Assembly (NCBI GenBank): GCA_963760795.1
Contig: CAVXEP010000009.1
Coordinates: 54,848-118,847 of the forward strand
Source: an uncultured delta proteobacterium
Lineage (GTDB): Bacteria > Desulfobacterota > Binatia > UBA9968
Direction of reading: 5' to 3'
DNA length: 64,000 nt
The notes under the pieces were generated by a model. That model was given only the letters and a program-made list of their open reading frames with translations, was not told where the DNA came from and did not search any database. Within the stretch, counting starts at the first letter, position 1, and each line of letters starts with the position of its first letter. The translations under genes and the position numbers were made by a program. Shown here piece by piece: positions 41,751 through 55,496 of this stretch.

Positions 41751-43880
41751 ATGACCGGCAACGCCCAAGAAAAAATCCTCGGTCTGCTCAACAAACAGCC
41801 GCGCGGCCGCTTTACGCCGGCCGAGCTGCAGCGGCGCGCCGGCTTCGAACGCGACGATTTACAAGCAATCATCGACGCCCTGCGCCAGCTCTGCCGCGAC
41901 GGCCGCCTGGTCCGGCTCAAGAAAAATCATTACGCGCTACCGGACCGGCAGAATCTCCTGCGCGGCCGCGTCCACGCCCATCCCGACGGCTACGGCTTTC
42001 TCATCCTGGACGATAAGGACGCTGACGATGTTTACTTGAACCGCCGCGAGATGCGCCGGGTCATGCATGGCGATCAAGTGATGGTGCGCATCGACCGTAA
42101 AGCGCGCGGCGGCAGCGAGGCCCATATCGTCCAAGTCATCGAGCGCGGTCAAAAACGCCTGCTCGGCACCTACGAAGAGATCGACGGTCGCGCATTCTTG
42201 ATCCCGATGGACGCGCGCATCGGCGCCATGCCGCTGAAGGGCGCCGGCGCGAAATTGACGGAAGGCAAAGTCATCGCTGCCGAGATCAGCCGCTTCGGCA
42301 GTGCCCTGTCGCCGCCGGAAGCCACCGTCGTGCAAGTCATGGGCGACCCTAACGATCCCGAGGTGCAGGCGCAATCGATCATCTTCCGCTTCGGCCTGCC
42401 GCTGAGTTTTCCGCCGGAAGTGCATCGCGAAGTGAAGCATGCCGCCTATGAAATCAGCGCGGCAGAAATCGCCCGGCGCGAAGACCTGCGTGAATTGCCC
42501 ATCGTCACCATCGACGGCGAGAACGCCCGCGACTTCGACGACGCCGTCTACGCACGGCGCAAGGGCCAAGGCTACGAGCTTTTCGTTTGCATCGCCGACG
42601 TCGCCCACTACGTCTACCCGGAGACGGCACTCGACCAGGAAGCCTATGCCCGCGCCACCAGCGTCTACTTTCCCGACCGGGCGATCCCGATGCTGCCCGA
42701 AGCGCTGTCCAACGGAATATGCAGCTTGAATCCCAATGAAGAGCGTCTGACCAAAACCGCCTGGATCGAATTCAACGGCAAAGGCGAAGCGATCCGCAGC
42801 CGCTTCTTCGACTCGGTGATAAAAAGCCACGCGCGCATGACCTATACCAATGTCCGGCGTATCCTGGTCGACAAAGATCCCGAATGTCTGGAGAATTATC
42901 GCGATCTAGTGGACGGCTTCAAACTGATGGAAGAGCTGGCGCTGGCGATTTACGCCACCCGCAAAGCGCGCGGCAATCTCGACTTCGATCTGCCGGAGGC
43001 CGAGATCGTCCTCGACCTGCAAGGCTTGCCGGAAGACATCGTCCGCGCCGAGCGCAATATCGCCCACCGGATCATTGAAGAATTCATGATCGCCGCCAAC
43101 GAAGCGGTGGCGCGCGAGCTCACGGCTAAAGATTTTCCGGCGCTCTATCGCGTCCATGCCGGGCCGGACGAAGACGCACTCGAAGCCCTGGAGCCTTTTC
43201 TTCTGAGCCTGGGCTATCGTCTGCCGCAGGATAAAGAGAACCTGCCGCCGCTGGAGATTCAGCGATTGTTGGAATCCGCCCGCGGTAAACCGGAAGAGCG
43301 CGTGATCAACCGCGTGCTCTTGCGCTCGATGAAACAGGCCGTTTATCAACCGGAGAATATCGGCCACTTCGGCCTGGCATCGACCTGTTACACTCACTTC
43401 ACTTCACCGATTCGCCGCTATCCCGATCTGATCGTCCATCGCATGCTCGAACGCGTCATGGGCGGAGAACAGCTCAAACCCAAGGAACGCGCCGATCTGC
43501 TGCGCACTTTGCAGGAGTCCGGCAAACACACCTCCGAACGCGAGCGCCACGCCATGGACGCCGAGCGCGAAATGGTCAGTTTGAAAAAGGCCCAGTTCAT
43601 GATGACCAAGATGGGCGAGGAGTTTAACGGCTTCGTCAACAGCCTGGTTAAGTTCGGCCTCTTCGTGGAACTCGACGACTACTTTATCGAAGGCTTGGTA
43701 AAACTGTCATCGCTCACCGACGACGACTACGATTATTACGAAAAGGAATACCTGATCAAAGGCCGCCGCCACGGCAAGAAGTTTCGCTTGGGCGACAACG
43801 TGCGCGTGAGAGTGGCGAAGATCAACGCGTTTAGGAGCGAAATCGATTTCGAACTGATCGCGCCCCACCAAGTTTCATGA
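41751..43880 (+). CDS. rnr: Ribonuclease R
   Basis: HPDGYGF, TIDGENARDFDDA, HFTSPIRRYPD, S1 domain. Confidence 0.96.
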   Translation: MTGNAQEKILGLLNKQPRGRFTPAELQRRAGFERDDLQAIIDALRQLCRDGRLVRLKKNHYALPDRQNLLRGRVHAHPDGYGFLILDDKDADDVYLNRREMRRVMHGDQVMVRIDRKARGGSEAHIVQVIERGQKRLLGTYEEIDGRAFLIPMDARIGAMPLKGAGAKLTEGKVIAAEISRFGSALSPPEATVVQVMGDPNDPEVQAQSIIFRFGLPLSFPPEVHREVKHAAYEISAAEIARREDLRELPIVTIDGENARDFDDAVYARRKGQGYELFVCIADVAHYVYPETALDQEAYARATSVYFPDRAIPMLPEALSNGICSLNPNEERLTKTAWIEFNGKGEAIRSRFFDSVIKSHARMTYTNVRRILVDKDPECLENYRDLVDGFKLMEELALAIYATRKARGNLDFDLPEAEIVLDLQGLPEDIVRAERNIAHRIIEEFMIAANEAVARELTAKDFPALYRVHAGPDEDALEALEPFLLSLGYRLPQDKENLPPLEIQRLLESARGKPEERVINRVLLRSMKQAVYQPENIGHFGLASTCYTHFTSPIRRYPDLIVHRMLERVMGGEQLKPKERADLLRTLQESGKHTSERERHAMDAEREMVSLKKAQFMMTKMGEEFNGFVNSLVKFGLFVELDDYFIEGLVKLSSLTDDDYDYYEKEYLIKGRRHGKKFRLGDNVRVRVAKINAFRSEIDFELIAPHQVS

Positions 43881-44037
43881 TTGAGGCGAGAATTGGATTC
43901 CTACATTTGCTTCGCATGACAATGGGCCGCGGAACTTGGGAGAGAGAAAAAATTCACACAAGCTTGGGGCTTGGTAGTCAGCAACTTGTCCGCGATGCGC
44001 GTCCGCTTGGCGCCGCTCCAATCGCCGCCGGCGGCAA

Positions 44038-44247
44038 TTAGAGCTCACTTTTAAGCGAGCGAGTTTGTTTTGGTTTTTTCGCTTTGGCTGGCTTGGTCCG
44101 AGTTTTCGGACGATGTTTTTCCTGCCACAACTCCTGCGCTTTCAACCAGTGCTGCAGGTCGGATCCGTTTGGACACCCCGATTCCTGCCAAAGTCTATAC
44201 GCAAGCTGACGAATCTCCTCGTTCCGATCGATCTCAGTGCCCTGCAT
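44038..44247 (-). CDS. DUF2934 small protein
   Basis: IRQLAYRLWQESGCPNGSDLQHWLKAQ. Confidence 0.85.
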   Translation of the reverse strand: MQGTEIDRNEEIRQLAYRLWQESGCPNGSDLQHWLKAQELWQEKHRPKTRTKPAKAKKPKQTRSLKSEL

Positions 44248-44385
44248 GACCTACGCTCCTTCCTTTGATTACACATTCTATTGTACAAATCGGTTACTGC
44301 GCTGTAAAGAATCCCCTTCGTGAAACGCACGTGAGTTTCTTCGGCGCGCACGCACCGGTTGATTCCAATCTCTGACTTTAATGGC

Positions 44386-45387
44386 TCATTGCCATCCTGC
44401 CATCAAGCTGAGCAAATCACAGACGCGGTTCGAGTAACCCCATTCGTTGTCGTACCAACTGAGACACTTGAGATACTTGCCGCCGGTGACCGTGGTAAAT
44501 CCCGCGTCGAAAATCGATGAATGGGGGTTGCCGATAATGTCCGAGGAAACCACCGGGACTTCGACGAATTGCAAGATGCCTTGCATGCGCCGGGACTCGG
44601 CGGCCGCGCGTATCTCCGCATGGACGTTGTCCGCGCTGACGATTTTCTCGAGTTCGACGAACAGGTCGACGACGGAACCATCGGGCACCGGCACGCGCGC
44701 GGCGATACCGTCCAGCCGGCCTTTCAATTCCGGCAGCACCATGCCGACGGCTTTGGCGGCGCCGGTCGAAGTCGGAATGATATTTTCCGCCGCGGCGCGG
44801 CTGCGTCGCCAATCCGAGTGCGGCACGTCGGCCAGACGCTGATCGTTGGTATAGGCGTGCACCGTGTTGATGACGCCCTCGGCGATGCCGAAAGAGTTGT
44901 GCAATACCTTCGCCAGGGGCGCTAGGCAGTTGGTGGTGCAGCTGGCGTTGGAAATAATCCGGTGTTCCGGCTTAAGTCCGTCATCGTTGACGCCGAGGAC
45001 CACCGTGTAGTCGATGGCATCCTTGGCGGGCACCGTAAGCACAACTCGCTTCGCGCCGGCGCGCAGGTGCTGGGTCAGTTGTTCCTTCGCGGTGAAGATG
45101 CCGGTGGACTCGACTACCACATCGATGCCGAGATCGTTCCATGGCAGTTTGAGCGGGTCTCTTTCGCACAGCATCCGCGTTCGGCCATAGGGGGTGACCA
45201 GCTCATCGCCTTCGAGCCGTAGAGTGCCGTCGAACGGACCCATGACCGTATCGTAATGGAGCAGGTAGCGCAGCGCTTCATTGTCGAAAAGGTCGTTAAT
45301 CGCGACCACGTTAACGTCGCTACGCTTGTCGAGAATTCGGAAGACCGTGCGGCCGATGCGGCCAAAACCATTGATTGCGACTCTCAT
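44386..45387 (-). CDS. gap: Type I glyceraldehyde-3-phosphate dehydrogenase (active-site Cys intact)
   Basis: INGFGRIG, ASCTTNCL, TVHAYT, WYDNEWGY. Confidence 0.95.
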   Translation of the reverse strand: MRVAINGFGRIGRTVFRILDKRSDVNVVAINDLFDNEALRYLLHYDTVMGPFDGTLRLEGDELVTPYGRTRMLCERDPLKLPWNDLGIDVVVESTGIFTAKEQLTQHLRAGAKRVVLTVPAKDAIDYTVVLGVNDDGLKPEHRIISNASCTTNCLAPLAKVLHNSFGIAEGVINTVHAYTNDQRLADVPHSDWRRSRAAAENIIPTSTGAAKAVGMVLPELKGRLDGIAARVPVPDGSVVDLFVELEKIVSADNVHAEIRAAAESRRMQGILQFVEVPVVSSDIIGNPHSSIFDAGFTTVTGGKYLKCLSWYDNEWGYSNRVCDLLSLMAGWQ

Positions 45388-46403
45388 TTGACACCTCTGA
45401 CGCCATCGAGCTTGCCATAGTGCCGAACGACGTCGAGCACGCGGCAGGCATGACCCAAACTTTCGTACCAGGCCAAGACTTTGACCATGTTTTTTCCCGC
45501 TTTGAGGGTCGCTTGCGAATCAAACAGCAATGACTGCCGGCAGCCAATGACATCGGACGATACGATGGGATCGTCGGTAACGCCGATCAGCAGCGGATGG
45601 TCGTTTGCCGCGGCCCGCATAGTCTCGTTTACTTGGGCGGCGGTCACGCCGCTGTCGTGCATCACGCAATTCAGATCCAACAACGATCCCCGTTGCACCG
45701 GCACGTTGAGGGCATAGCCGCTCAGCTTGCCGGCGAATTTAGGCAAGATCTGTTCTACCCAACGGGGCGATTCATTGCTGTTGGGGATGATGTTCTGGGC
45801 GGCGGACCGACTCCGACGAAAATCCTCGTGGGCATAGTCCTGCAAGGATTGGTCGCTGCTGTAGGCATGGACCGTTGTCATCGACGCGCAGTCAACTCCC
45901 AGCGCCGCGTCGAGAAAATACAAAATCAGCGCGAGCGCGTTGGTGGTGGCCGATCCTGCCGAGATCAGCCGGTCGGCGCTGACCGCGCTGGCTTCATTGA
46001 TGCCGGGAACCAACACGCGATCTATCGGTTCCGCGGGCAGCGATGCGAGAATCACCCGGCCCGCGCCGGTTCGCAGGTGGGTTTCGAGATATTCACGGCG
46101 TCGATATCGGCCGGTGGCATCGATAACGCAATCGACCCCGAAAACGTCCCACGGAACATCTCCGGGTTTGGCAATCTGCAGCATCCTCGTGCGAAACTTC
46201 CCATTGACCAGATAATTGTCGTCGAGCTCGCACTGCGGCGCGTCGCCAGTGTCGCTGTTGAGGAGATAGTGGAGAATTTCCGGCTTGCCGATGTCCGCCA
46301 CCGCGACGATCTCAAGATCGTCGCTTTCCGCCGCAAGCTGATAAAGGTGCCGGCCGATCTGGCCTAAGCCCATCACGCCGATTTGGATCTTCCCGTTACG
46401 CAT
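45384..46403 (-). CDS. GAPDH-like protein lacking the catalytic cysteine
   Basis: Full-length GAPDH fold (GLGQIG, DATG, TTVHAY, RRSRSAAQNIIP, IVSSDVIG) but SAGSATTNAL; overlaps the gap start by 4 nt. Confidence 0.9.
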   Translation of the reverse strand: MRNGKIQIGVMGLGQIGRHLYQLAAESDDLEIVAVADIGKPEILHYLLNSDTGDAPQCELDDNYLVNGKFRTRMLQIAKPGDVPWDVFGVDCVIDATGRYRRREYLETHLRTGAGRVILASLPAEPIDRVLVPGINEASAVSADRLISAGSATTNALALILYFLDAALGVDCASMTTVHAYSSDQSLQDYAHEDFRRSRSAAQNIIPNSNESPRWVEQILPKFAGKLSGYALNVPVQRGSLLDLNCVMHDSGVTAAQVNETMRAAANDHPLLIGVTDDPIVSSDVIGCRQSLLFDSQATLKAGKNMVKVLAWYESLGHACRVLDVVRHYGKLDGVRGVK

Positions 46404-46984
46404 AGATTCTCTCCCGGCGTTTCACGAACTGAGCGCCAAACTATCTTGGAACGATGATACACCCACAGTTGTGAAGAATCGATGTTGCGGAAGAATAATC
46501 CCCCTAGATGCAATTCCGTTCGTGGGTGGGCTATTTGCACGATCGGCGCCTCAGGCCAATCTTCAGCGGATTTGGTTGTTGAAGATACAGTTCAATCCCA
46601 GCCCACAGCAAGACAATTAGCGGCGCTACCTGCGGCCCCGCGATCGAATGGATAGCGATCCGACCGCGCGGAACTCGAAACGATTGCCCGTGCGGTCAAA
46701 AGGGCTGGTCGATTCCAGTCACCAGCGTCTTTCGACCGTAAACCTTCCCTATTCCTTCGAGCTCTCGGCTCTGCTCAAGCGCGGATCCGCCCGGCAGCTT
46801 GAGTTAAGGGTTCGCGCTGAGGCAATCCGCCTCTGCACGTTAGTATCGGGACTGACCCTACGCAAAGACCGCGCCGTGTACGGGAGACTTGGAACTATCT
46901 CGTTGCGGCGGTCTTTTCGCCACCGTTAGCGATCCAAGATGCCTTAAAACTGATCGCGGTCTGCATAGCAGTTAGGCAGCGCGC

Positions 46985-47230
46985 GCGATTCCCCATCGAA
47001 GCCGTGGATGAAATGGAGCAACTGATCTACCGGGGAAATTTGCCCATGCGCCTGCAAGCTGAGTTCAGCAGAAATGATGCGGACAATCGGCGATGATCTT
47101 TCCGCTCGACACCAACGCTTTCAGCGACCTGATGAGAAAGCATGCAAAGGTCGAAGCACCGCTGACTTCACTCACAGCCGGCGATAGAGTCATCATGGGG
47201 CCGATCGTTCGCGATGAAATTCGTTACGGC
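46985..47230 (+). pseudogene. Decayed VapBC-type TA pair (antitoxin C-terminus + truncated PIN toxin)
   Basis: ..EAVDEMEQLIYRG..RR* overlaps ATG 47093 MIFPLDTNAFSDLMR..PIVRDEIRYG, after which homology is lost. Confidence 0.6.
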
Positions 47231-47656
47231 ACTCTATCCACGACACGAGTCACGCGTGTAAGGCGCACGGGAATCAAGCGACGCTCACGGACGACGAATC
47301 TACGAAAAAGGATTACCGCATCATGGGCCGCTGCCACGGCAAGAATTTCCGCCTCGGCGACGGCGTGCCGGCGAGATTGGCACAGATCATTGCCTTTCAC
47401 AGTGCCATATTTTGAATTGGCGCAGACGAGTACGATCGGCTCTTTGCAAACCCACGCTAATCGCATTGAAGGAGAATACAGTTCAATCTCAGTCGTAACA
47501 TTTTTTGGGTGAGCCGTCGTGTCGGTCTCAACCCAATGGTTAGGAACTTCATGGATAATTGGACTTATCCTCTTTTCTTTTCCTATACCTATACTCGTCA
47601 ACTCTGATCGTCACTTTCTTCGTGGCGCTCCCTTTCAATTAAGGCGAATTAAGGCA

Positions 47657-47681
47657 GTCCGGCTGCAGCGCGTTGTTAGGT
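47657..47681 (-). mobile_element. Truncated attC site (R''/L'' half)
   Basis: ACCTAACAACGCGCTGCAGCCGGAC downstream of the SRPBCC gene. Confidence 0.65.
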
Positions 47682-47731
47682 ACTGCCCTTTTGATAAACC
47701 TTAAAAAGACTGCGGCCAATCCTCCTCCACG

Positions 47732-48178
47732 CTAATCTGGAATTTCGGCCTCGACAAGTTTCGCCAGAAGAGTGAGCGATTCCTGCCAGCCAAGATAGCA
47801 AGCCTCGGCAGGAATGACATCGGGCACCCCTTCCTGCACGATGTTCAACTCAGTCCCGACGGATACCTTCTTCAAGGTTACCGTCACCTGAAGTTCCCCC
47901 GGCAGGTTTGGGTCGTCAAATTTGTCCGTGTAGCGAATACGTTCGTGCGGCACCAGTTCGAGATACTTTCCTCCGAAAGAGTGGCTATGTCCAGTGGTGA
48001 AATTCGTGAACGACATCTTGTGGGTACCGCCGACCTTGGCATCCAAGTGGTGCACCTTGCCGGTGAATCCGTTTGGCGGAAGCCATTTGGCCATTGCGTC
48101 GGCATCTAGGAACGCCCGATAGATTCTCTCAGGAGTCGCACGCAGCACGCGGTGAAGCCGGATGGTGTTTGTTGACAT
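47732..48178 (-). CDS. SRPBCC/AHSA1 family protein (cassette gene)
   Basis: PERIYRAFLD..KWLPPNGF..GWQESL. Confidence 0.9.
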   Translation of the reverse strand: MSTNTIRLHRVLRATPERIYRAFLDADAMAKWLPPNGFTGKVHHLDAKVGGTHKMSFTNFTTGHSHSFGGKYLELVPHERIRYTDKFDDPNLPGELQVTVTLKKVSVGTELNIVQEGVPDVIPAEACYLGWQESLTLLAKLVEAEIPD

Positions 48179-54281: not shown

Positions 54282-55496
54282 ATGGGGTCAGCTAAACGCA
54301 AAAACCGCGGCCACGGGAAACAACTGCGCTGGGAAGATCTCGTCTCGACCAAGCCCGGCACCCTCGCGGGGAATTACCTGCGCCGGTTTTGGCAGCCGAT
54401 CCACCGCGCCGAAGAACTTCGCGCCGGCGAAGCCAAACCGATCGAAATCATGAGCGAGCGCTTTACGCTCTACCGCGGTGAAACCGGCGCGCCCCATGTC
54501 GTCGGTTTTCGTTGTCCCCATCGTGGCACACAGCTTTCGGCCGGCTGGGTGGAAGGCGACTGCATCCGCTGCGTGTATCACGGCTGGCTGTTCAACGGCG
54601 CCGGGCAATGCATGGAACAGCCGGCCGAAGATAAATCCTTTGCCGCCAAGATCCGCATCGGCAACTGTCCGACGCGGGAATATTTAGGCTTGATCTTCGC
54701 CTACTTTGGCGAAGGCGAAGCGCCGCCGTTTCCACGCTATCCGCATATGGAAGAGGACGGCGTCCTCGAAGTGCTGTCGACGGAAATCTGGCCGTGCAAT
54801 TTTTTCCAGCGCATCGACAACAACGGCGACACCTATCACGTGCCCTTCGTCCATCGCGGCGCCTACTCGGCCTCTTCGGCGAACAATCGCGCCGGCCTGC
54901 CGGAAATTTCCAAAGAAGAAAGCCCCTGGGGCACCACTGCCTACGCAAGCTTCGCCCAGGGCTGGCGCAACGTTTTTCAGTTCTTCATGCCCAACGCCTA
55001 CGCTTTTCGCAACCCCTCGCCGGAACCGGAGTGCGGCGCGGAAGACCGCATGCAATGGGACGTGCCGCTCGACGACGAGAGGTCTTTGGAATTTCGCCTG
55101 CGCCGTTTGCCGCTCACCGGTAAAGCCGCCGAAGACTACCGCGCGCGCCGCGCCGCCGCGGCCGCGGAGCCAAAAATCTCGGTCGCGCAGATGGGCGCAG
55201 CCGTGCTGGCGGGAAAACTCAACTTCCAAGACTTGGACAAATTTTTCCAAGACAAAATCGCTTTGGTGCATAGCCAAGACTACGTCGCGCAAGTCGGCCA
55301 AGGCCCGGTGGCCGATCGCGCCCAGGAACATCTCGGCCGCTCCGACACCGGCATTATTTTATTTCGCAAGATCTGGGAGAGAGAACTGCGCGCCTTAGCC
55401 GAAGGACGGCCGCTGAAAAAATGGTGCTTGCCCCAAGACGCCGAGATCGCATTCCAGCAGGAGTCGACAAAATTGCTTCAGAGCGCGCCAGGATAG
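54282..55496 (+). CDS. Rieske oxygenase alpha subunit (phthalate/5,5'-dehydrodivanillate demethylase-like)
   Basis: CPHRG..CVYHGW; DNNGDTYHVPFVH; QDYVAQVGQG..EHLGRSD. Confidence 0.9.
   Translation: MGSAKRKNRGHGKQLRWEDLVSTKPGTLAGNYLRRFWQPIHRAEELRAGEAKPIEIMSERFTLYRGETGAPHVVGFRCPHRGTQLSAGWVEGDCIRCVYHGWLFNGAGQCMEQPAEDKSFAAKIRIGNCPTREYLGLIFAYFGEGEAPPFPRYPHMEEDGVLEVLSTEIWPCNFFQRIDNNGDTYHVPFVHRGAYSASSANNRAGLPEISKEESPWGTTAYASFAQGWRNVFQFFMPNAYAFRNPSPEPECGAEDRMQWDVPLDDERSLEFRLRRLPLTGKAAEDYRARRAAAAAEPKISVAQMGAAVLAGKLNFQDLDKFFQDKIALVHSQDYVAQVGQGPVADRAQEHLGRSDTGIILFRKIWERELRALAEGRPLKKWCLPQDAEIAFQQESTKLLQSAPG

Follow-up and report, generated by a model that had tools for sequence, protein, structure and literature searches.

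The gene pair and its first product

This study concerns two genes for proteins of the glyceraldehyde-3-phosphate dehydrogenase (GAPDH) type in an uncultured delta proteobacterium (GTDB lineage Bacteria; Desulfobacterota; Binatia; UBA9968). They lie in contig CAVXEP010000009.1 of assembly GCA_963760795.1, of which 64,000 nucleotides (positions 54,848 to 118,847 of the forward strand) were analysed; this whole stretch is called the window. As listed in Table 1, an open reading frame (ORF) for a GAPDH homologue, ORF A, is directly followed by a canonical type I gap gene, ORF B, and the stop codon of ORF A overlaps with the start codon of ORF B. It was found that the product of ORF A lacks the catalytic cysteine, that its closest homologues lack it as well, and that its relatives are encoded just upstream of a gap gene in nearly all loci where they occur. 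In the following, "X" or GapX denotes the Asn231-type clade that includes the product of ORF A, and "partner gap" denotes a gene of the ORF B type; these names were coined here. The two products are called A and B for short.

Both A and B have the Gp_dh_N and Gp_dh_C domains of Pfam, with E-values of 2.6e-16 (PF00044) and 7.3e-40 (PF02800) for A, and they are 38% identical over 327 residues. Against TIGR01534, the NCBIfam model of type I GAPDH, B scores 419.8 bits, which is above the cut-off of 367.2, and A scores 254.6 bits, which is below it. B carries all of the canonical motifs (SNASCTTNCL, TVHAYTNDQ, and SWYDNEWGY). A preliminary description of the locus, made from the nucleotide sequence without database searches, had stated that the 339-residue A keeps the GAPDH architecture together with TTVHAY, that ASCTTNCL is replaced by GSATTNAL with alanine for both cysteines, that WYDNE is changed to WYES, and that the stop codon of ORF A overlaps with the start codon of a canonical gap gene. 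The domains, the codons, and the aligned sequences agree with all of these statements.

The motif region of A reads LISAGSATTNAL, in which SAGSATTNAL stands where GAPDH has SNASCTTNCL. The position of the catalytic Cys149 is occupied by an alanine (Table 1), and that of Cys153 by another one (codon 156, GCG). The C-terminal motif reads AWYESLGHA instead of SWYDNEWGY; WYES-LGHA is one residue shorter, and both Asn313 and Glu314 are lost. Three further changes had been missed in the preliminary description: Arg231 is replaced by Asn (ALNVPV), Arg10 by Gln, and Thr208-Gly209-Ala210 of the inorganic phosphate (Pi) loop by Asn-Glu-Ser (IIPNSNESPR vs IIPTSTGAAK, or TSTGA to NSNES). Thr206, Asn6, and Asn31 are also lost. 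Since there is no Cys149, no thiohemiacetal can form on A, and the losses of Arg231, the Pi loop, and Asn313/Glu314 come on top of this. The residues kept in A are the GxGxxG motif (GLGQIGR), Asp32 (VADI), Ser148, Thr150, Tyr178, and Arg194, Arg195, and Arg197. The substrate-phosphate site is mixed, with Ser in place of Thr179, Arg195 kept, and Arg231 replaced by Asn. The catalytic base His176 is present in TTVHAY, and it is invariant in 32/32 diverse X proteins, including the Cys-less ones.

Binding of nicotinamide adenine dinucleotide (NAD) by A is uncertain, because Arg10 is Gln and some relatives are without the third Gly of GxGxxG. In one Cys-less branch of X, the motif reads GFGEIPR (loci L053, L056, and L076) or GFGEINR (L089), so that both the third Gly and Arg10 are lost, and judging from these residues the branch has probably lost NAD binding too. 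Thus, NAD binding is not a constant of the X clade. The members of this branch (L053:5013-6029, L056:2998-4011, L076:4995-6008, and L089:4995-6020) have WYH.. for WYDNE and are still coupled to gap. A neighbouring gene in L076 encodes a CHU_C type IX secretion domain.

Cys149 is absent from every one of the 120 best-matching homologues, which are 77-99% identical to A and almost all 339 residues long. The motif is AGSATTNAL in 61, AGSATTNAF in 57, TGSATTNAF in one, and AGSGTTNAF in one. For the wider clade, a few source names indicate the taxonomic range (Ca. Binatia, delta proteobacterium, Syntrophobacter sp., and Ca. Eisenbacteria); the protein atlas returned generic GAPDH clusters only. I compared 30 A/B gene pairs by the Nei-Gojobori method, using the 281 comparisons with a synonymous divergence (dS) between 0.05 and 1.5, although the pairs are not independent of one another. 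The median ratio of nonsynonymous to synonymous divergence (dN/dS) was 0.104 for A (range 0.036-0.229) and 0.066 for B (0.033-0.134), and the value of A exceeded that of B in 95% of the comparisons. These ratios indicate that A is under strong purifying selection, which is somewhat looser than that on the enzyme B. The preliminary description had reckoned with the case that the closest homologues retain the cysteine and had proposed the dN/dS comparison; none of the 120 retains it, and the ratios speak for constraint.

Table 1. Features of the gene pair, with positions counted from the first letter of the window
Feature	Position	Strand	Remarks
ORF A (gapX-type)	45384..46403	minus	339 amino acids, full-length GAPDH homologue
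ORF B (canonical type I gap, partner-type subgroup: Tyr41, Thr118-Val119, RRSRA S-loop)	44386..45387	minus	333 amino acids
ATGA overlap, 4 nucleotides	45384..45387	minus	TGA of ORF A (45386-45384) and ATG of ORF B (45387-45385)
Codon 152 of ORF A, GCC, Ala at the position of catalytic Cys149	45948..45950	minus	from sequence and alignment
Shine-Dalgarno-like AGAGGTG, putatively for ORF B	45392..45398	minus	within the last codons of ORF A, 4 nucleotides before the ATG
Shine-Dalgarno-like GGGAGAG, putatively for ORF A	46409..46415	minus	5 nucleotides before the ATG (46403-46401)
Conserved block ATCGATTCTTCACAACTGTGGGTGTATCAT	46454..46483	minus	50-80 nucleotides before the ATG of ORF A; alignment of 10 upstream regions

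Pairing with gap and phylogeny of the GapX clade

Is the coupling common among the relatives of ORF A? I scored 116 loci with profiles of X and of the partner gap: the window, 35 genome loci holding A orthologues from a scan of species-representative genomes, and 80 metagenome loci. The metagenome loci were collected with a profile of 15 distant relatives, a search pattern that matches ordinary gap genes too. An X-type gene was present in 91/116 loci, and the partner gap lies directly 3′ on the same strand in 88 of the 91. In the remaining three (L024, L048, and L058), the contig ends 0-79 nucleotides after X. The other 25 loci have a canonical gap only. Thus, the adjacency to gap that the preliminary description had proposed to examine is conserved, and among the 91 X loci every X whose contig extends far enough has its partner gap. 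X is always the upstream member of the pair. Distances between the genes could be measured in 68 pairs, those with both ends assigned by a simple gene finder: -4 nucleotides in 49, -1 in 10, and another value (from -17 to +178) in 9.

Soil and rhizosphere metatranscriptome contigs match the locus at 99-100%. Contigs from two studies cross the junction of ORF A and ORF B: X1 record 5 (45310-45612, with 2 differences) and X3 record 22 (45196-45460, with 0 differences). Three more (X2 record 16, X3 record 24, and X4 record 32) hold the 5′ part of ORF A and reach up to 44 nucleotides 5′ of its ATG. As these runs are stored as contigs, the gaps in cover over parts of the two ORFs carry no meaning.

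A orthologues (73-99% identical) were found in 24/30 genomes of the same genus-level group (23/29 without the unpublished G404), in 0 of 6 other genera of the family, and in 1/24 genomes from two other families of the order (G458, 52% identical). A phylum-wide search of 401 genomes gave no A-type orthologue outside the source genome. In eight genomes of the phylum sample (G254, G380, G062, G332, G224, G194, G028, and G067), there are adjacent double GAPDH hits about 2-75 nucleotides apart, which could represent additional pairs of X and gap. A search for B in five of the six same-genus genomes that lack A gave no orthologue. G407 (99% complete), G424 (92%), and G422 (86%) have ordinary gaps only, which are 81-93% identical to the GAPDH on contig 3 of the source genome and 52-53% identical to B; from G406 (98%) and G430 (88%), the query B retrieved no GAPDH at E<=1e-40. 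The pair therefore comes and goes as a unit.

The GAPDH on contig 3 is a third, ordinary one (L036:730-2445; contig C3:30740-34210), and its gene directly follows a phosphofructokinase gene. In this ORF, Gp_dh_N (residues 103-203) and Gp_dh_C (258-414) are followed by two CBS domains up to residue 557. Orthologues in four same-genus loci (81-93% identical) are 339 residues long and have no CBS domain. The extended form is either a lineage-specific fusion or the outcome of a lost stop codon or an assembly slip.

The X clade is monophyletic and apart from canonical GAPDH, with Shimodaira-Hasegawa approximate likelihood-ratio (SH-aLRT) values of 97 for 22 rows and 99 for 58 rows. All trees were built by a quick method under LG+G4 without a mixture model and are unrooted. 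The nearest relatives outside the A group, found in an exhaustive search of 50%-identity representatives, are without Arg231 (N, K, S, T, E, or H instead), without the TSTGA loop, and without Glu314, and they have M for Asn6 (MGFGRIGR). When the X profile was used for the search, the best 120 hits were all GapX-type proteins. In a 118-row tree, the ordinary GAPDHs form a 60-row clade (SH-aLRT 99), which includes the third GAPDH of the source genome and the 16 stand-alone gaps for which 1.1 kb or more of sequence lies upstream. The 48 partnered gaps all fall outside this clade, on the side of X. One stand-alone gap, that of L109, stands among the partnered ones; the absence of an X upstream of it was confirmed. 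Partner and ordinary gaps differ at 18 positions, e.g., Tyr41, Thr118-Val119, and Ser196. Since X shares most of the states of the partner gaps, it probably arose by duplication within the partner-type lineage.

A belongs to a 31-row subclade (SH-aLRT 97) which is entirely Cys-less. On a non-redundant tree, the state of residue 149 requires 8 parsimony changes, 3-4 of which are forced by well-supported branches. A single clade of all 47 Cys-less rows, a group that was defined after the tree had been seen, is rejected by the approximately unbiased test (p 0.0045, log-likelihood 155 lower). These trees indicate more than one loss of Cys149 in a clade that retained the gene and its pairing throughout.

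Apart from the two genes, the surroundings are variable. A survey of 109 ORFs from 32 loci revealed no third gene conserved with the pair. Some pairs lie in glycolytic operons, with the order iPGM-X-gap-pgk-fba in L115 and L116 and X-gap-fba-phosphoenolpyruvate carboxylase in L105, and L057 has the order TrmB-X-gap-pyruvate kinase. In these four operons, the pair looks like the main GAPDH of the cell. In the window, the pair stands alone, and the gene downstream of it is a convergent RNase R gene. The 1.3 kb 5′ of ORF A (46404-47731) has no Pfam or Rfam match; two ORFs in it (46648-46929 and 47093-47512) were assigned to no family, and an Rfam scan of 43800-47800 gave no match. GGAGGTG is found in two relatives (L020 and L025) at the site of AGAGGTG before ORF B, and a GGAG upstream of the ATG of ORF A is conserved in the upstream alignment. 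The block ATCGATTCTTCACAACTGTGGGTGTATCAT, which is conserved in the closest relatives, may be a promoter of the two-gene unit, a candidate suggested by the same alignment; it was not called by a consensus promoter scan, and the promoter and terminator scan was at chance level.

Several long ORFs that resembled X-gap fusions were rejected. P0271 (677 residues) and P0272 (673 residues) have a frame-shifted stretch between the N-terminus of an X and a full gap. The 672-residue ORF of L020 (L020:3986-6004) results from a frame slip, in which one base differs from the relatives near the stop codon of A, and the long ORFs of L064, L104, and L112 are start-codon artefacts in GC-rich DNA. In P0273 (454 residues, low GC), the last third of an X is in frame with a full gap. 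A partial GAPDH-like fragment (L026:7356-7676, profile positions 188-294) lies 1.3 kb 3′ of the pair in L026.

A proposed mixed oligomer and its alternatives

What does A do without a catalytic cysteine? The main argument comes from the phylogeny: since the X genes stayed in place and coupled to gap through repeated losses of Cys149, their conserved function would need no catalysis. As A keeps the fold, the oligomer interface, and a part of the anion pocket, I infer a structural or regulatory (ligand-sensing) subunit. On balance, A is probably the non-catalytic partner subunit of a two-gene GAPDH and assembles with B in a mixed oligomer. In such a system, A and B would be made from one message by coupled translation and in a fixed proportion. 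They would assemble into a GAPDH-type oligomer, most simply a tetramer of A:B dimers joined across the sheet of the catalytic domain. A would supply no chemistry and would instead shape the stability, cooperativity, or regulation of the active B subunits. Ser148, Thr150, His176, Ser at 179, and Arg195 of A make up part of an anion pocket, and what is left of it (Ser148, Thr150, His176, and Arg195) is a candidate ligand site.

A structural model is consistent with this assembly. Built from 32-row alignments of X and partner gap taken from the same loci, the A:B complex gave ipSAE values of 0.81, 0.78, and 0.76 (median 0.78), with a predicted local distance difference test (pLDDT) score of at least 90 for the partner and agreement of the contacts in three runs. 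It passes the mark of the tool, which was reached by 116/157 solved complexes and 2/215 mismatched pairs. The modelled interface is the sheet of the catalytic domain (residues 172-310 of A), as in GAPDH dimers. The best PDB matches are all canonical GAPDHs (2ep7_A for A at 7.8e-60; 1gd1_O for the clade profile at 4.8e-127). No part of X is better conserved than the interface, where the mean frequency of the top residue is 0.71 vs 0.55 elsewhere; in B, with 0.76 vs 0.74, the interface does not stand out. The identity between A and B is 54% at these positions (25/46) vs 36% elsewhere (101/281). Thus, A looks able to make a GAPDH-type interface in the model. The preliminary description had proposed a pseudo-enzyme subunit of a heteromer. 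This stands as the best supported reading, given the absence of Cys from all 120 homologues and the pairing in 88 of 91 loci, and its binding part is a prediction of the model.

Several points weigh against the mixed oligomer. GAPDH tetramers have been solved many times, so the model speaks for the ability of A to form a GAPDH-type interface rather than for A-B binding, and its pass may be due to the likeness to these structures. Of three controls, two gave 0.00 and one, in which A was kept and B was replaced, gave 0.39. Likewise, the interface residues do not separate a heteromer from a homomer, because a homo-oligomer of A needs the same residues. There was no true X-B fusion protein among the hits examined, with no search aimed at longer proteins. 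The contigs crossing the junction give a weak indication of co-transcription, because DNA can be present in RNA libraries and a contig is no proof of one continuous transcript. In addition, the pair is accessory and dispensable in this lineage, as the genome encodes an ordinary GAPDH on another contig and some same-genus genomes do without the two genes. Finally, Cys149 (in SCTAH or SCTAN), His176, and Asn231 are all kept in 93 of the 115 full-length best hits of the X profile; in the remaining 22, residue 149 is S, T, I, A, or V, or residue 231 is Cys. Since most distant members of the clade keep Cys149 and His176, the family as a whole is not well described as dead; X may originally have been an independent enzyme, and its co-transcription with gap may reflect a shared pathway and not a complex.

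A different possibility is that A forms a homo-oligomer which acts without B, either as a sensor of NAD(H) or triose phosphates or as a moonlighting binder of nucleic acids, and is co-transcribed with B for a shared physiological setting. The retention of GxGxxG, Asp32, and part of the anion pocket (Ser148, Thr150, His176, and Arg195) would suit such a role, the conserved interface suits a homotetramer equally well, and the control value of 0.39 suggests that A is "sticky" to the model. A precedent for an independent dead GAPDH-like protein exists in trypanosomes. As described in its report (PMC4106842), TbGAPDHL of the Trypanosoma brucei paraflagellar rod is a structural component of the flagellum with a non-glycolytic role; its nucleophilic Cys is replaced by Pro, its cofactor pocket is possibly retained, and it is poorly conserved between species. 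To that extent, it resembles A as a GAPDH homologue whose nucleophilic Cys is replaced, whereas TbGAPDHL is eukaryotic and unpaired, and A is strongly conserved (dN/dS 0.10) and coupled to gap. The overlap of stop and start codons, kept over deep divergence (-4 nucleotides in 49/68 pairs), the constant pairing of X with B, and the joint absence of A and B from the same-genus genomes searched are patterns typical of the subunits of one complex, which argues against an independent A. A role as an NAD sensor is also disfavoured by the erosion of the NAD-binding residues in parts of the clade, such as Gln for Arg10 in A itself and the GFGEIPR/GFGEINR branch. An independent action of A is therefore unlikely.

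A still more doubtful alternative is that A is an active enzyme with a Cys-independent chemistry, e.g., an oxidoreductase for an alcohol or a keto-sugar phosphate that uses His176 as a base and works before or after GAPDH in the pathway. Other Rossmann enzymes with a GAPDH-like C-terminal domain are a precedent for Cys-independent chemistry. The invariance of His176 and the retention of Asn231 in about 87-90% of the X clade suggest a selected pocket rather than free drift, and the glycolytic operons of L115, L116, and L105 would place such an enzyme in a fitting pathway. However, residue 149 is A, S, T, V, I, N, or P across the Cys-less branches, and residues 206-211 are freely variable across the clade. 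The site table of the clade contains no new invariant polar residue that could act in catalysis. A is without Asn313, the residue that positions the nicotinamide, and some branches have lost Arg10 and the third Gly in the nucleotide loop. A new catalytic function is thus quite improbable.

The view of A as a gap duplicate that was inactivated recently and is now being lost is refuted by the intact motif region with shared substitutions in 120/120 closest homologues, by its place in a 31-row Cys-less subclade whose sequences are <72% identical to one another, and by the dN/dS of 0.10, even though a few relatives have broken copies. In these relatives (L032:4013-5004, L034:4010-5004, and L095:2263-3116), X is split into two or three frame pieces and the downstream gap is intact. 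Two of the three loci come from long-read assemblies, in which such breaks are often sequencing errors; the split copies could be such errors or genuine recent inactivations.

Known systems and implications

Few enzymes have been studied as much as GAPDH, which in bacteria is regarded as a homotetramer. A has the same two Pfam domains and the same length as type I GAPDH (GapA, EC 1.2.1.12, TIGR01534; e.g., 1gd1 of Geobacillus stearothermophilus). It differs in the lack of Cys149, Cys153, Arg231, Thr208-Gly209, Asn313, and Glu314 and in its score below the family cut-off, and the X clade is encoded just upstream of a true gap. Epd (TIGR01532, NF010058) is likewise a GAPDH paralogue with an altered phosphate site, and it keeps both Cys149 and Arg231. 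A scores 181.9 bits against TIGR01532 (cut-off 530.55) and 183.2 against NF010058 (cut-off 539), far below both, and was rejected as an Epd.

To my knowledge, the chloroplast GapA/GapB enzyme (A2B2) is the only described GAPDH of two paralogous subunits; the PDB matches include a chloroplast GapA chain, one of whose further entry codes is 2pkq. Its two-paralogue arrangement is like that proposed for A and B. Both chloroplast subunits are active, whereas one subunit is dead here and the genes are a bacterial overlapping pair. GapB is set apart mainly by a Cys-bearing C-terminal regulatory extension, which is not found in the pair: A ends with RHYGKLDGVRGVK, without Cys, and B ends with SLMAGWQ.

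Partners that are dead paralogues are known from other enzyme families, namely the prozymes of trypanosomatid S-adenosylmethionine decarboxylase (AdoMetDC) and deoxyhypusine synthase and the Idh1/Idh2 pair of yeast NAD-isocitrate dehydrogenase, in which a degenerate site can become regulatory. The same principle is proposed for A, whose catalytic residues, like those of a prozyme, have been lost under purifying selection; the complexes have been shown in those families, whereas that of A and B is modelled. The preliminary description knew of no account of this arrangement. In agreement with this, no bacterial Cys-less or heteromeric GAPDH was found in full-text literature searches, which mostly do not cover subscription journals. 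One candidate precedent, PMC12041015, concerns ALDH16 and complexes of aldolase and aldehyde dehydrogenase (ALDH) and was set aside.

It is possible, and I hold it more tentatively than the proposal for A itself, that the glycolytic GAPDH of many uncultured lineages is an obligate heteromer of GapX and a dedicated partner gap, in which GapX began as an altered, Cys-bearing paralogue and repeatedly and independently became a dead subunit whose remaining anion and nucleotide pocket serves as an allosteric sensor for triose phosphates or NAD(H). If so, a textbook enzyme would have a level of regulation that is new, and the gene in the window would be one dead branch, accessory beside an ordinary gap. 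Should the X proteins that carry Cys149 be active enzymes, two different active sites would have been present in the ancestral pair, and the series from Cys-bearing to Cys-less partners offers natural material on the origin of pseudoenzymes. For annotation, genes of the A type are now called "glyceraldehyde-3-phosphate dehydrogenase" or "NAD-binding domain-containing protein", and the gap copy counts taken from genomes give too high a catalytic capacity, with consequences for metabolic annotation. If the partner gene is a conserved subunit, a whole class of bacterial GAPDHs would have an unrecognised second component, and this may matter for how abundant bacteria of soils and the sea regulate their central carbon flux.

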